A stretch of 11,082 nt of DNA from Thermoanaerobaculaceae bacterium (GTDB lineage Bacteria; Acidobacteriota; Thermoanaerobaculia; Thermoanaerobaculales; Thermoanaerobaculaceae). The stretch lies in the NCBI GenBank assembly GCA_035517415.1, contig DATIYW010000113.1, forward strand, positions 1 to 11,082, read 5' to 3'. Within the stretch, counting starts at the first letter, position 1. Each line of letters begins with the position of its first letter. The position numbers were made by a program, and so were the translations under genes. Below are positions 282 through 10,030 of this stretch, piece by piece. A model generated the notes under the pieces. The model had not been told where the DNA came from. It made no database searches and saw only the letters and a program-made list of their open reading frames with translations.

Positions 282-710
282 ATGAGCAAGAAAGCAGAAG
301 GAGAGTTCAAGGTCCTATTTGTCGCTGGGTTCGGTCCCATTGTCCAAGACATCCCCAGCTCCCACAAGTTCTATGTGGATGCTCTCGGCTTGTCCTTCCA
401 GAAGGAGGCGGGAGACTATCTACACACAGAGAAATTGGAAGGCGCCATGACTTTTGCTCTCTGGCCGCTTTCGCAGGCAGCACAATCCTGTTTTGGGTCA
501 GAGATCTGGCCATCGGACCTTCCGGCACCTCAAGCATGGCTGGAGTTCGACGTTGATGACATTGAGCGGGCCAGCACAGAACTACAGAGAAGTGGATATA
601 GGTTGTTGTCGAGAGCACAGAAAGAGCCGTGGGGACAGATTGTTACTCGTTTGCTCAGTCCCGAGGGCATATTGGTCGCGGTCACTGTTACGCCGGCGAT
701 GCGCAGATAG
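282..710 (+). CDS. VOC (glyoxalase/bleomycin-resistance/dioxygenase) family protein; probable integron cassette ORF
   Basis: 142-aa ORF with a VOC-like C-terminal motif (FDVDDIERASTELQRSGYRLLSRAQKEPWGQIVTRLLSPEGILVAVT). An AG-rich SD, gagaggaagaag, lies just upstream of the ATG. GC is markedly lower than neighbouring genes, with many A/T-ending codons. It is flanked by attC-like repeats, and its stop at 708-710 is ~15 bp before copy 2. Confidence 0.8.
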   Translation: MSKKAEGEFKVLFVAGFGPIVQDIPSSHKFYVDALGLSFQKEAGDYLHTEKLEGAMTFALWPLSQAAQSCFGSEIWPSDLPAPQAWLEFDVDDIERASTELQRSGYRLLSRAQKEPWGQIVTRLLSPEGILVAVTVTPAMRR

Positions 711-6396: not shown

Positions 6397-7050
6397 CTAC
6401 TTCCGCAGCAGCTTGAACGCGTGGTCCCAGCTGTTGGTGCGGATGCCGTAGAGCACCCACAGGATGCACATCGGCTCCAGAAGCCTCGCGCCCTCGATGC
6501 CACCGAGGTCGATGGTCGGCCAGCCGAACTCCTTGAGGATGGTCGTCACCACCGCCTTGGCGTCCGCGTCGTTGCCGGCGATGAGCATGTCGGGCGGGCC
6601 GCCCGGAAAGCTCGGGTTCACCATGTGCGCGAACCCGACGGTGTTGAACGCCTTCACCACCCGCGACTCGGGCAGCCAGCGCTGCACCTGCTCGCCGCCC
6701 GAGTCGTTGTGGCCGAGCGCCAGCGCGGGCGGCGCGTTGGGCGCGAACACGAGGGGGTTGGTGGCGTCGATCACGACCTTGCCGGCGAGGTGCTTCGGGT
6801 TGGCGAGACGGATCGCGCTCTCGGTCCCGCTCCACAGCGTCGCCAGCACCACCACCTCGCCGAACTTCGCGGTCTCCGCGAACGTGCCGGCGGTGGCGCC
6901 GTGGCCGACCTTCGCCAGCATCGCCGTGACCTTCTCGCTGCCGGGCTCGCGCGAGCCGACCTTGACCTCGTGACCGTGCTTCGCGAATCCGGTCGCCAGC
7001 GACCGCCCGACGTCGCCCGTGCCCAGGATCCCAATCCGCGATTTGGCCAT
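6397..7050 (-). CDS. NADP oxidoreductase, coenzyme F420-dependent family (NADPH-dependent F420 reductase-like / dinucleotide-binding) protein
   Basis: MAKSRIGILGTGDVGRSLATGFAKHGHEV is a Rossmann GxGxxG N-terminus typical of the F420_oxidored / ProC-like family. ATG at 7050 has GGAGG 6 nt upstream. The track uses a TTG two codons earlier. Confidence 0.7.
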   Translation of the reverse strand: MAKSRIGILGTGDVGRSLATGFAKHGHEVKVGSREPGSEKVTAMLAKVGHGATAGTFAETAKFGEVVVLATLWSGTESAIRLANPKHLAGKVVIDATNPLVFAPNAPPALALGHNDSGGEQVQRWLPESRVVKAFNTVGFAHMVNPSFPGGPPDMLIAGNDADAKAVVTTILKEFGWPTIDLGGIEGARLLEPMCILWVLYGIRTNSWDHAFKLLRK

Positions 7051-7146
7051 CGTCAACCTCCGGACGGGAGAACACCCGGCGCCGCCGCCAATTTCCCGAT
7101 CCGAGAGCCCAGCGATGGGCCGGATTCGTCGCGATGACGCGCGAGC

Positions 7147-7163
7147 GTGGCGGAGGGGAGGAG
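7147..7163. repeat. Direct repeat of the tRNA-Ser 3' end (18-bp identity CGTGGCGGAGGGGAGGAG at 7146-7163 and 7187-7204)
   Basis: Exact match, read directly. The repeated segment covers CCA, the discriminator, the acceptor 3' strand and the start of the T-stem. The copies are 41 bp apart. Confidence 0.7.
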
Positions 7164-7188
7164 CCTGCGGGGCGATGCGGCGCCGCCG

Positions 7189-7276
7189 TGGCGGAGGGGA
7201 GGAGGTTCGAACTCCTGAGGGCTTGCACCCTGCCAGTTTTCAAGACTGGTGCCTTCGACCGCTCGGCCACCCCTCC
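7189..7276 (-). tRNA. tRNA-Ser (anticodon UGA), class II with long variable arm, encoded CCA
   Basis: Reverse complement: GGAGGGGTGGCCGAGCGGTCGAAGGCACCAGTCTTGAAAACTGGCAGGGTGCAAGCCCTCAGGAGTTCGAACCTCCTCCCCTCCGCCA. The acceptor is 7 bp (GGAGGGG/CCCCTCC) with discriminator G. It has a 3-bp D-stem with a long D-loop, and an anticodon stem CCAGT/ACTGG around loop CTTGAAA (anticodon TGA). There is a long variable arm and a T-loop TTCGAAC. It is very similar to E. coli tRNA-Ser(UGA). Confidence 0.93.
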
Positions 7277-7443
7277 GCAGGCGCGGGCAGCATAGGTCCG
7301 CCACGGAGCAAGCTCAAGCCGGACGGCGTGGGACCGAATGGGGCTCAACCGGGGCGACGCCCCCGCGGGCGCGAGTGGCTCTGCCGGGAGAGATCGTGCC
7401 TCGCCAATCCGGACCGCAGCGGCCGCGGCTGAGCCGCTCCGAG

Positions 7444-7851
7444 CTAGCCCTCCGACTCGGCGATCAGGCGCTTCGCGAAGGCCGCCTGGCTCTCCGGTAC
7501 GAGCAACCGCGTGCACGTGGCCCAGTCCGTCTGACCGTCGAAGTCGCGGCCGTCGTCGAGGAACTCGATCACGACGACGCCGTTCGCCGCGAGCAGCGCG
7601 AGCGCCGGCCCGGCGTCGTCGCGGCTGTCGAACGCCGCCACCGCCACGACCTGCTCGGCGACCGGCGGCACCTGCTCCGTCTCCGGCGCCGCGTCGAGCT
7701 GGATCTCAGCGCGTGATGCGGCCGACTGCACAGCGGCCACCTCCTCGACCAGCGTTGCGCCGCAGATCGGGCAGACCGTCACGCCGTCGACGTATTCGCC
7801 GTGGATGCGGCTCTCGACGAAATCCGGGCACTCGCGGTTCGGGCAGAACAC
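7444..7851 (-). CDS. Zinc-ribbon + DUF2007-like small protein
   Basis: GTG at 7851 is preceded by GAGGAGG with a 5-nt spacer. The N-terminus has a Cys4 ribbon (CPNRECPDF…CPICG). The C-terminus (VAVAAFDSRDDAGPALALLAANGVVVIEFLDD…CTRLLVPESQAAFAKRLI) resembles DUF2007, the putative signal-transducing fold. It lies 50 bp downstream of the flotillin-like gene on the same strand. Confidence 0.6.
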   Translation of the reverse strand: MFCPNRECPDFVESRIHGEYVDGVTVCPICGATLVEEVAAVQSAASRAEIQLDAAPETEQVPPVAEQVVAVAAFDSRDDAGPALALLAANGVVVIEFLDDGRDFDGQTDWATCTRLLVPESQAAFAKRLIAESEG

Positions 7852-7900
7852 CGGCGCCTCCTCGTGTCGATCTCGGGTGGCATCTGACCGCTCGACTCGC

Positions 7901-10030
7901 TCACGTCGCGTCGATCTCGCGCTCGGCCGAGTCGTCGATCGACTCGGGCGTGGCGCCCTGATCCGGGTCCTCCGCGCGGGCGAAGCGCCGCGCCAGCTCG
8001 GCGGCGAACCTCTCGAGGTCCTCGAGCCCCTTCGGCGCGTCGGTGGGGCTCAGTCCGGTCCTCTCCGCCAAGAGGATCGCGATCAGCTGCGTGAACACGT
8101 TCGCCACGCCCGGCCCGCCGCCCTCGGCGCCGCCTCCCATCGTGAACAGCCGCTCCGGCACGATCGGCTGGGCGCTGTGGGCGAACTGGTCGGCGACGAG
8201 CGAGAGCGCGAACAGGCGCGGGTCGCCGTAGGCGCGGATCTTCTGCAGGAATACCGCCGCCTCCGACAGGCCGGTCTGCGCGATCCTGGCGCCCTCGCCC
8301 TTGCCGAACAGCTCCTTCGAGCGCGCCTCGCCGAGCGCGCGGACGACGTCGCGCTTGGCCAGCCGCCGCGCCTCGGCCAGCTGCGCCTCGCCGCGGTTGC
8401 CGGAGATCGCCACGTCGACCTGGGTCTGCGTCAGCTCGGTCTGCTTGTCGGCCGAGGCGCGCGCGTCGTTCAGCTCGCGGAGCTGCTTGGCCGCCTCCTC
8501 CTGCTTGGCGAAGGTCTGCTTCTGCTCCTCGGCGAGCCGGCGGGCGCGGAGCTGGTCGAAGAGCAGCTCGATCGGGTCCTGCTGGCCCTCGGGGACGCGC
8601 GACTCCGGGCGTCCGATCAGCACCGCGATGCAGTTGATGTCGTACTCCTGGAAGCGCCGCCCGAGCTCCTCGGTGGCGCGCTTCTGGATGTCCTCGCGCT
8701 TGGTCAGCAGGTCGAGCATGTGCGAGCTCTGCGCCACGTCGCGGAAGTACGACGAGAGGATCGGGTCGAGCGTCTGCGAGATCAGCCGGCGCACGTCGCC
8801 GAAGCGCTGGATCACCGACGGCGCCTTCTCGTAGTCGATGTGGAGCACGAGGGAGAGCGGCAGCACCGGCTCGTAGCCGTCCGCGGTGATCAGGTCGATG
8901 CTGGTGAGGTCCTTGTCGTACTGGTGCTCCTCGGCCTGGCCGGTGATCCAGCGCAGCACGAAGTTCACGGTCGGAACCAGCTCGACCTTGAGCGCGTAGG
9001 GGTTCAACGGGTACTTGCCGGGGGCGAGCGCGCGCTTCCACACGCCGCGCTGGCCGGCCTCGACCTGCTCGCCGTAACGGAACCCGGTGCCGGTGACGTC
9101 GGCGCCGCGCCCGCCGAAGTACGACACCACCACGCCGACGTAGCCGATCGGGATGAGCGTCTTGGGATTCATCTCGACGGTGGCGAACCAGCGGTTGAGG
9201 AAGAACGTGCCGTCGGTGAGCACCTGGAGCTGCTTGCCGCGGCGTCCGCCGAGCGCGAGGAACGCCTCGGGGTCCTGGAAGTAGTTGTGGTCCGTCTCGC
9301 CGTGGGCCGGCTTGACCTCGGGGGCGATGATCTCGGAGGTCTCGATCGGCGGCCCGTCCTGCACCGTCACCACGCCGATCGTGTCGGTCGCGGTGATGCG
9401 GATGTCGGCGCCGCCGACCGCGCGGTCCGCGCCCGCCGCCGCCTCGCGGCCGCCGTGGCCGACGATCACCGGCGTGAAGCCGCCGATCGCGCGGAGCTGG
9501 CTCTGCCACTCCGCGTACTTCGCCCCGTGCTCCTGGATCGGGCCGGAGTACACGCGCTCCTCGGTGATGACGACGAACTGCGCCAGGTTCACGGCGAAAA
9601 CGCCTTCACGGAGGATCGCGCGCTGGCGGCCGCGCTGGCCGCCCTTGGTCAGGAAGCCGCGCGCGTCCTGGAAGTGGTTGCCGTCGGCGATCCGTCCGAG
9701 CGTCTGGGTCGGCGGCAGGGGAGAGCCGTCGCGGGCGTAGACGTAGCCGATCCGGCTCTCCGCGATCATTACGAGCGGCTCCCGGTGGACGCGGTACTGC
9801 CAGGGGAAGTAGCCGAAGTGCAGGCCGCCGCGGAGGATCTCGGCCTGGAACCCGGCCTCGCCGTCGAGCGCAATGATCTTGCCGGACTTGAGCGAGCCCT
9901 TCGCCGACCAGTACTTCTCGATGATGCCGACCTTGTTGTGCGGGATGTAGCGGAGCCCGAGCAGCCACTTGAGCAGAATCAAGCCGACGACCACGCCGAT
10001 CGGGACGTACGCGATAGGGGGTATGGGCAT
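7901..10030 (-). CDS. Flotillin-like SPFH/Band-7 domain membrane protein (large, ~709 aa)
   Basis: ATG at 10030 (MPIPPIAYVPIGVVVGLILLKWLLGL, an N-terminal TM helix) is preceded by AGGAGG. An SPFH-like core runs …SIDLITADGYEPVLPLSLVLHI…LDPILSSYFRDVAQ…DINCIAVLIGRPE. The C-terminus is Glu/Ala/Gln-rich and coiled-coil, typical of flotillins. The upstream part of the track ORF (to 10441) is low-complexity and overlaps the divergent promoter, so it is rejected. Confidence 0.65.
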   Translation of the reverse strand: MPIPPIAYVPIGVVVGLILLKWLLGLRYIPHNKVGIIEKYWSAKGSLKSGKIIALDGEAGFQAEILRGGLHFGYFPWQYRVHREPLVMIAESRIGYVYARDGSPLPPTQTLGRIADGNHFQDARGFLTKGGQRGRQRAILREGVFAVNLAQFVVITEERVYSGPIQEHGAKYAEWQSQLRAIGGFTPVIVGHGGREAAAGADRAVGGADIRITATDTIGVVTVQDGPPIETSEIIAPEVKPAHGETDHNYFQDPEAFLALGGRRGKQLQVLTDGTFFLNRWFATVEMNPKTLIPIGYVGVVVSYFGGRGADVTGTGFRYGEQVEAGQRGVWKRALAPGKYPLNPYALKVELVPTVNFVLRWITGQAEEHQYDKDLTSIDLITADGYEPVLPLSLVLHIDYEKAPSVIQRFGDVRRLISQTLDPILSSYFRDVAQSSHMLDLLTKREDIQKRATEELGRRFQEYDINCIAVLIGRPESRVPEGQQDPIELLFDQLRARRLAEEQKQTFAKQEEAAKQLRELNDARASADKQTELTQTQVDVAISGNRGEAQLAEARRLAKRDVVRALGEARSKELFGKGEGARIAQTGLSEAAVFLQKIRAYGDPRLFALSLVADQFAHSAQPIVPERLFTMGGGAEGGGPGVANVFTQLIAILLAERTGLSPTDAPKGLEDLERFAAELARRFARAEDPDQGATPESIDDSAEREIDAT

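Follow-up and report, generated by a model that had tools for sequence, protein, structure and literature searches.

A displaced copy of the tRNA-Ser(UGA) 3' end close behind the gene: a probable integration scar in a Thermoanaerobaculaceae genome

The stretch of DNA analysed here, in the following called the window, comprises 11,082 nucleotides with a G + C content of 71% and, as ARAGORN and Rfam concur, contains a single tRNA gene, tRNA-Ser(TGA) on the minus strand, which judged by its sequence is intact and functional (Table 1). Upstream, in the orientation of the tRNA, lie the genes for a membrane transporter (Mem_trans family, divergent), an SPFH/Band-7 membrane protein and a small zinc-ribbon protein. 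In the downstream direction the first four genes code for an F420-type NADP oxidoreductase, a 162-aa protein of no assigned function, a pyrimidine-dimer glycosylase and a further protein of no assigned function, followed by genes for an SRPBCC protein, a DUF1697 protein, a malic enzyme and an ankyrin protein. Since these downstream genes have the very high third-codon-position G + C content that is typical of the window (0.90 in the F420 oxidoreductase gene, like the rest of the window) and are syntenic in the related locus L110, they are native genes and not the cargo of an island. The window contains no gene for an integrase or for any other function of a mobile element, and there is no intrinsic terminator between the tRNA and the oxidoreductase gene.

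The motif TTGAGC-N17-TATGCT in front of the tRNA gene is its probable promoter. Whereas it scored below threshold in a promoter consensus scan, TTGAGC-N17-TAT(G/C)CT precedes the tRNA in all seven lineages compared below, in the form TTGAGC-N17-TATCCT in L099, L075, L110, L114, L122 and L124.

Table 1. Coordinates of the tRNA-Ser(UGA) gene, the repeat and the adjoining features in the window
Feature	Position	Strand	Basis
Probable tRNA promoter, TTGAGC (7312-7317), 17 nt, TATGCT (7289-7294)	7289-7317	-	Read from sequence
tRNA-Ser(UGA) with encoded CCA, intact	7189-7276	-	ARAGORN; Rfam RF00005, 56.4 bits
Repeat copy inside the tRNA, attL-like	7187-7204	-	Exact match; anatomy compared with ARAGORN/Rfam
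23-nt spacer, GCGGCGCCGCATCGCCCCGCAGG on the tRNA strand	7164-7186	-	No ORF, no Rfam match at gathering score
Displaced ('orphan') copy of the tRNA 3' end, attR-like, 23 nt past the tRNA	7146-7163	-	Exact match
95-nt stretch from the displaced copy to the F420 oxidoreductase start codon	7051-7145	-	
F420_oxidored (NADP oxidoreductase) gene, first downstream of the tRNA	6397-7050	-	Pfam PF03807

The feature of interest is an exact duplication of the 3' end of this tRNA gene. As claimed in an earlier note on this DNA and borne out by exact search, the 18-mer CGTGGCGGAGGGGAGGAG occurs on the plus strand at both 7146-7163 and 7187-7204; the distance of 41 bp given there is right for the start-to-start spacing but not for the gap, which is 23 bp. 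Read on the tRNA strand, the repeat is CTCCT-CCCCTCC-G-CCA-cg and consists of the 3' strand of the T-stem (5 nt), the 3' strand of the acceptor stem (7 nt), the discriminator G, the encoded CCA and two trailer bases (CG), so that 16 of its 18 bases belong to the tRNA and two to the trailer. That the copy at 7187-7204 is the genuine 3' terminus of the tRNA, as the earlier note had it, agrees with ARAGORN, Rfam and this anatomy, with the qualification that two of its bases are trailer. The other copy lies downstream of the tRNA in the same orientation as the tRNA 3' end, and its identification as a displaced 3' fragment stands, both position and orientation being as expected of an att site.

With up to three mismatches allowed, the window contains only one further match to the 18-mer, at 1878-1895 within the ankyrin gene, which is attributable to chance, and none of 200 shuffles gave three or more matches. 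By base composition, ~3e-4 exact 18-mer direct pairs within 100 bp are expected in the whole window, and the pair is the sole exact direct repeat of at least 14 nt within 200 bp that the window contains.

On one side of the repeat, the identity ends exactly at the T-loop/T-stem boundary, with no similarity on the T-loop side, and the T-loop/T-stem junction is one known crossover position of tyrosine integrases in tRNA genes. On the trailer side, a weak match continues over 13 of 23 bases (p ~0.01; about 1% of random window pairs reach it). The abrupt drop from 18/18 to 13/23 (p = 0.002, Fisher's exact test) fits a recombination core with unrelated or long-diverged arms and not an old local duplication.

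This bears directly on the possibility that the duplication arose without any integrase, which is rather unlikely and comes in two versions, namely (a) a 41-bp tandem duplication by slippage or (b) the import of a tRNA together with its trailer from a related genome. Version (a) is rejected, since uniform decay cannot account for 18/18 next to 13/23 (p = 0.002): were the displaced copy neutral, its 18 unchanged nucleotides would limit its age to ~0.17 substitutions per site at most, far below the divergence of the adjoining 23 nt. Version (b), which is taken up again below, can draw on the same resemblance of the spacer to the 23 nt that follow the displaced copy (13/23, p ~0.01).

The duplication is not confined to the window. 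Both copies, 41 bp apart, are found in three independent metagenome contigs from other samples, L074 (the contig that is also L113; JGI 3300032955), L111 (ENA ERZ27256511) and L112 (ENA ERZ27256474), and a further contig, L001 (JGI 3300032892), starts inside the spacer and carries the displaced copy together with part of the spacer. In all four contigs the displaced copy is unchanged. L074 is 95.9% identical to the window over 2552 nt, with the differences spread through the flanking genes, but shows no difference in either copy and only one in the spacer. The tRNA gene itself has no difference in 90 nt between these ~96% identical strains, and the spacer differs from that of the window at one position each in L074, L111 and L112 and at three in L001. 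As the duplication is shared by strains of ~96% identity, it must predate their divergence and is not an artefact of assembly.

Accordingly, an assembly artefact or a chance repeat can be regarded as practically negligible. Contigs L001 and L098 do break at or near the tRNA, a place where assemblers struggle; however, three independent assemblies contain both copies and a fourth has the displaced one, with the surrounding sequence differing at the strain level. In addition, a repeat of 18 nt does not reach the length of typical assembly k-mers, and the expectation of ~3e-4 argues against chance.

Two minor observations concern the distribution of the differences between these strains. L001 is 99.6% identical to the window over 2077 nt, and three of the nine differences fall within 9 nt of the spacer (7168, 7170 and 7176), near the end of the contig; the L001 spacer (L001 1-21, corresponding to 7164-7184 of the window) is thus either a contig-end artefact or a third spacer variant on an otherwise identical flank. 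In addition, the intergenic region upstream of the tRNA (7277-7443), which holds terminator-like hairpins after the zinc-ribbon gene as well as the tRNA promoter, differs at only one of 167 nt between the window and L074, compared to 3.5-6% in the neighbouring genes, and either is under constraint or belongs to a recently recombined tract extending over the tRNA and the duplication as well.

Related loci were found via homologues of the SPFH and oxidoreductase proteins, and six further lineages share the Mem_trans - tRNA-Ser(TGA) neighbourhood. The named homologues of these two proteins belong to Acidobacteriota (Polarisedimenticolaceae, Acidobacteriia, Bryobacteraceae). In genome collections, the closest relatives of the F420-type oxidoreductase are 68% identical and come from Acidobacteriota, Bacteroidota and Myxococcota (loci L002-L025), and no tRNA-Ser was found near them in the 14 loci that were scanned for tRNAs.

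Amongst the seven lineages, the DNA directly 3' of the tRNA varies. In four of them the site is empty, i.e. there is a single copy of the tRNA 3' end and no displaced copy: it is followed by 28 nt and a peptidase gene in L099/L100, by ~84 nt and the gene for a 520-aa membrane protein in L075/L047, by 82 nt, orf517 and the oxidoreductase gene in L124, and by 211 nt and the oxidoreductase gene in L122/L123. In L110 the site is occupied, and short remnants are left in the lineage of the window and in L114/L115, which are the only ones with two direct copies among the 124 loci fetched. In L110, L114, L122 and L124 the F420 oxidoreductase gene also comes after the tRNA, separated from it by DNA that varies. 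Within the 95 nt that separate the displaced copy of the window from this gene, the promoter-proximal half can be aligned to the sequence in front of the gene in L110 and L122, while the half next to the displaced copy gave no confident alignment; the stretch probably represents the original tRNA trailer joined to the leader of the F420 oxidoreductase gene.

The most informative of these lineages is L114/L115. Here the tRNA is followed by 233 nt, a second 3' fragment, AATCTCCTCCCCTCCGC, which is exact over 17 nt and lies 249 bp start-to-start from the copy in the tRNA, then 84 nt, orf519 and the oxidoreductase gene. The stretch from this fragment to orf519 is colinear with, and equal in length to, what lies between the tRNA 3' end and orf517/520 in L124 and L075, and the orf519 product is 61-68% identical to the L047/L075 protein. 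Since the flank of the fragment in L114 is thus colinear with native trailers, the displaced fragment there is the original 3' end, which, as read from this colinearity, was demonstrably moved by 249 bp through an insertion that brought along a replacement end. In the window as in L114/L115, the block of identity has its left edge no more than 3 nt from the T-loop/T-stem boundary. No integrase or mobile-element gene is contained in the L114 spacer, the start of which resembles the native trailers of the relatives. As an observation in its own right, the 233-nt interval also harbours (L114 4125-4170) an inverted, degenerate copy of the tRNA T-arm and 3' acceptor strand (22/29 nt), which can form a long hairpin with the 3' half of the tRNA (z = -1.8).

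The comparison of relatives for inserted islands, which the earlier note had proposed, yielded one insert: in L110 the tRNA is followed, exactly at its 3' end, by ~2.3 kb of DNA with a lower G + C content (56-64%, flanks 69-74%), and then by the oxidoreductase gene and the downstream genes in the same order as in the window. This insert (7714-10000) contains a DUF4238 gene (7910-8935), at least seven copies of a 21-nt tandem repeat (9111-9292) and an ORF of 133 aa; searches with Pfam and PADLOC returned DUF4238 only, with neither an integrase nor a match to a defence system. There is no clear displaced tRNA fragment in L110, and an 8-mer, CTCCTCCG, upstream of its F420 gene is too short to be called a decayed displaced copy. 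The sequence of L110 has frameshifted genes and a split SPFH gene, so that its base accuracy is doubtful and it may carry indel errors. A kinship of the window's spacer to this insert (CCGCaTC-gCCCCGCAGGC) was considered, but with p ~0.1 for the whole insert and 0.01-0.04 for its first 150 nt the match is post hoc and unusable, and that of the L114 spacer is marginal (p ~0.03).

The claim of the earlier note that tRNA-Ser is a used integration hotspot thus gains from the lineage-specific duplication, the variation of the site in relatives, the L110 insert and the L114/L115 fragment, although no integrase was found. We consider it probable, with a probability of roughly 0.6, that the two copies in the window are the leftover of an attL/attR-like pair at a tRNA site that integrases use. 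Elements integrated in a tRNA gene are recognised by an exact fragment of its 3' end that lies downstream with the orientation of the gene: when a tyrosine integrase inserts the incoming DNA, this DNA restores the tRNA gene, while the displaced fragment is found at the far end of the element (PMC4383910). The T-loop and the T/acceptor-stem junction are the crossover positions given there (PMC4383910, footnote).

Under this scenario, DNA bearing a copy of the final ~16-18 nt of tRNA-Ser(UGA) would have recombined with the gene inside that block, probably by the agency of an integrase, and an element would once have lain between the copies. The incoming DNA would have supplied the new 3' end of the tRNA (7187-7204), and the original 3' end, together with its trailer, would have been shifted downstream, where it would now be found from 7146-7163 onward. 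The inserted DNA would then have been nearly all deleted, leaving the 23 nt of the spacer (7164-7186) as all that might remain of the DNA that once parted the copies. As precise excision would leave a single copy, the presence of only 23 nt between the two implies that the element would have been lost by internal deletion. The displaced copy would have no function of its own and simply not yet have decayed or been lost, in line with the observation that no known RNA family, terminator or unusually stable fold involves it.

With respect to the polarity of the event, 7146-7163 would be the original tRNA end in the lineage of the window. If the tRNA is directly followed by CGCTCGCGCGTCATCGCGACG... 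in sister species with an empty site, this would indeed be the case, whereas with CGGCGGCGCCGCATCG... in that place the polarity would be reversed and 7146-7163 would be the newcomer. The corresponding attP would be expected to read ...CCCCGCAGG-core-GCGGCGCC..., and further copies of the repeat string CTCCTCCCCTCCGCCA would bear on the interpretation as an att pair.

The search for such copies covered both viral and metagenome contigs. The 18-mer has no match in the viral contigs. The 16-mer that remains without the trailer bases has five, all of them chance-like, none attP-like and none in a tRNA; two of these (the pair L105/L109) lie upstream of a capsid gene, and none of the ORFs tested beside the 16-mer sites in L105 and L106 codes for an integrase. 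In the metagenome contigs the 18-mer was found at 72 loci, of which 69 are chance occurrences in unrelated coding DNA, and the only loci linked to a tRNA are L047, L074 and L075, which represent the lineage of the window (L074) and a single relative with one copy (L047/L075). The window, the related loci and the viral contigs yielded neither an integrase nor an element or attP. The residual attL/attR pair of the earlier note is the best available explanation and is partly backed by the comparison of relatives.

Several findings count against the interpretation as attachment-site remnants. Remnants of only 23 and 233 nt demand two near-total deletions, and the spacer resembles the trailer that follows the displaced copy (13/23, p ~0.01). 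Furthermore, a perfect 18-bp repeat with copies 41 bp apart should be prone to slippage deletion, going by short-repeat deletion studies. The repeat nevertheless persists across a strain divergence of ~4%, despite this expected instability. As to the second of these points, the trailer-like spacers in the window and in L114 imply that the incoming DNA carried trailer-like sequence, which could equally well have been an attP of host origin or an import from a related genome.

The latter possibility is version (b) of a duplication without integrase, which ranks second to the interpretation as an att pair. It assumes homologous recombination upstream and an illegitimate join inside the recipient tRNA, by which the last 18 nt of the recipient gene were left behind. 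In favour of this scenario are, in addition to the spacer match mentioned above, the resemblance of the L114 spacer start to the native trailers of the relatives and the lack of an integrase or element in the window, the L110 insert and the viral contigs. Moreover, the region 7146-7443 is unusually similar between strains, with two differences in ~300 nt compared to 3.5-6% in the flanking genes, and this low divergence could mark a recent recombination tract. However, such an import leaves unexplained why two independent joins, in the lineage of the window and in L114/L115, should fall within 3 nt of the same position of the tRNA, and also why foreign DNA of lower G + C content is found at the same point in a third lineage, L110.

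There is, in turn, a small probability that the displaced copy is kept by selection for a function at the RNA or DNA level, e.g. as an alternative partner of the 5' acceptor strand in the precursor, as a CCUCC-rich mask of the GGAGG ribosome-binding site of the oxidoreductase gene, or as a processing or termination signal. With no terminator separating the tRNA from the oxidoreductase gene, the two may be co-transcribed. In the complete precursor folded at minimum energy, the 5' acceptor strand is paired with the distal copy, and the repeat is kept in all five assemblies of the lineage despite its expected instability; the L114 trailer, too, holds a structured element, the inverted tRNA 3' half as a hairpin, with a sub-threshold match to Rfam sX4. 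On the other hand, folding is no more stable than in shuffled sequences (z = +0.73 and -0.72), and only the tRNA itself passes the gathering score of an Rfam family, the spacer and the displaced copy having no such match; a permissive Rfam threshold added nothing but sX4. At ~4% divergence only 0.7 changes are expected in 18 nt, so that observing none is no evidence of constraint. The gene after the displaced copy also differs, being that of the F420 oxidoreductase in the window and orf519 in L114. Finally, the second copy is absent from four related lineages, and any copy in L110 has decayed to an 8-mer; the direct repeat is therefore not a conserved terminator or processing structure of never-occupied genomes, the finding which, according to the earlier note, would have spoken against an att scar.

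Slim odds are also given to the idea that the short intervals (41 bp in the window and 249 bp in L114/L115) are not what large islands left on decaying but the normal product of a repeated addition, at this gene, of new tRNA-Ser 3' ends with a short piece of trailer, or else that the displaced copy is kept by selection. Compatible with this are the tiny remnants, the trailer-like incoming pieces, the lack of a nearby integrase and the persistence of the repeat across ~4% divergence. A candidate agent of repeated addition could be a miniature, non-autonomous, att-bearing unit that is moved in trans by an integrase encoded elsewhere, and a copy retained by selection may serve as a second attachment site or as an element of the precursor RNA.

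Very improbable is a target-site duplication by a transposase-type, e.g. casposon-like, enzyme acting at tRNA 3' ends, the element being nearly all lost thereafter. Casposons insert at tRNA 3' ends and generate target duplications of 14-15 bp, and the direct repeats of 17-18 nt are of broadly similar length. Yet they exceed the known casposon duplications, no terminal inverted repeats flank the spacer, and neither the window nor the L110 insert contains a gene for Cas1, a polymerase or a transposase.

Amongst known systems, the feature most closely resembles the tRNA-gene fragments that flank islands and prophages as compiled by Islander (PMC4383910), with which it shares an intact tRNA gene with an exact downstream 3' copy in the same orientation, an identity block of 16-18 nt from the T-loop/T-stem region and a site that varies between relatives. 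Judged by the criteria of that software, the full-length tRNA gene and the matching fragment are located in the same replicon, and the latter is an end fragment that lies downstream with the orientation of the gene. In contrast, the place between gene and fragment in which a tyrosine integrase is looked for is taken up by 23 nt only, and the interval is 41 bp, compared to the 2-200 kb of real islands (PMC4383910). The window, having neither integrase nor cargo, would thus fail the integrase and length filters of Islander. It contains a scar and not an island.

Cis-mobilizable elements (CIMEs), described in streptococci, are what remains of integrative elements after the loss of their recombination genes; they are flanked by att sites and presumably derive from an integrated element through internal deletion. 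Like these, the locus consists of two att-like repeats enclosing DNA without an integrase. However, the CIMEs described are much longer and have functional att sites with arm regions, whereas the 23 nt in the window cannot hold integrase arm-binding sites. A further comparison is with the model of the Xanthomonas sRNA sX4 (Rfam RF02223), in which a tRNA-Ser is followed by a trailer pairing with the tRNA 3' end. Here, too, a tRNA-Ser precedes a tRNA-derived trailer, and in L114 the inverted tRNA 3' half forms such a hairpin; but the scores of 20.1 bits for the window and 29.6 bits for L114 fall far short of the gathering score of 70, the match is driven by the tRNA part, and the copy in the window is direct and not inverted.

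The feature is therefore of a well-known kind, the tRNA-gene fragments left by integration, and its only unusual aspect is the very short interval; no new mechanism is revealed. Its significance is that the tRNA-Ser(UGA) 3' end appears as a recurrent site of insertion and turnover in a high-G + C, probably acidobacterial lineage of soil and sediment. As an example of an integration scar shrunk to 23 nt, it also calls for caution with island-finding software and in the annotation of these metagenome-assembled genomes.

The earlier note had in addition hinted at a link of the tRNA-Ser site to a cassette array ~6 kb away, for which there is no support: integron cassettes use a different recombinase and a different site, and the genes in between are native and syntenic in a relative. 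The integron cassettes are thus unconnected with the duplication at tRNA-Ser, and no integron integrase is present in the window. As a separate observation, a gene of the glyoxalase/bleomycin-resistance family with a lower G + C content (~55-60%) is located at the left end of the window (282-710) between two repeats of ~100 nt (130-238 and 714-822) that are 71% identical. The first of these has integron attC-like ends, GCCTAAC ... GTTGGGC, while the second is degenerate (GCCTAGC ...), and the region 130-822 resembles the end of an integron array, with its last cassette or cassettes, or else an integrase-less attC cluster.
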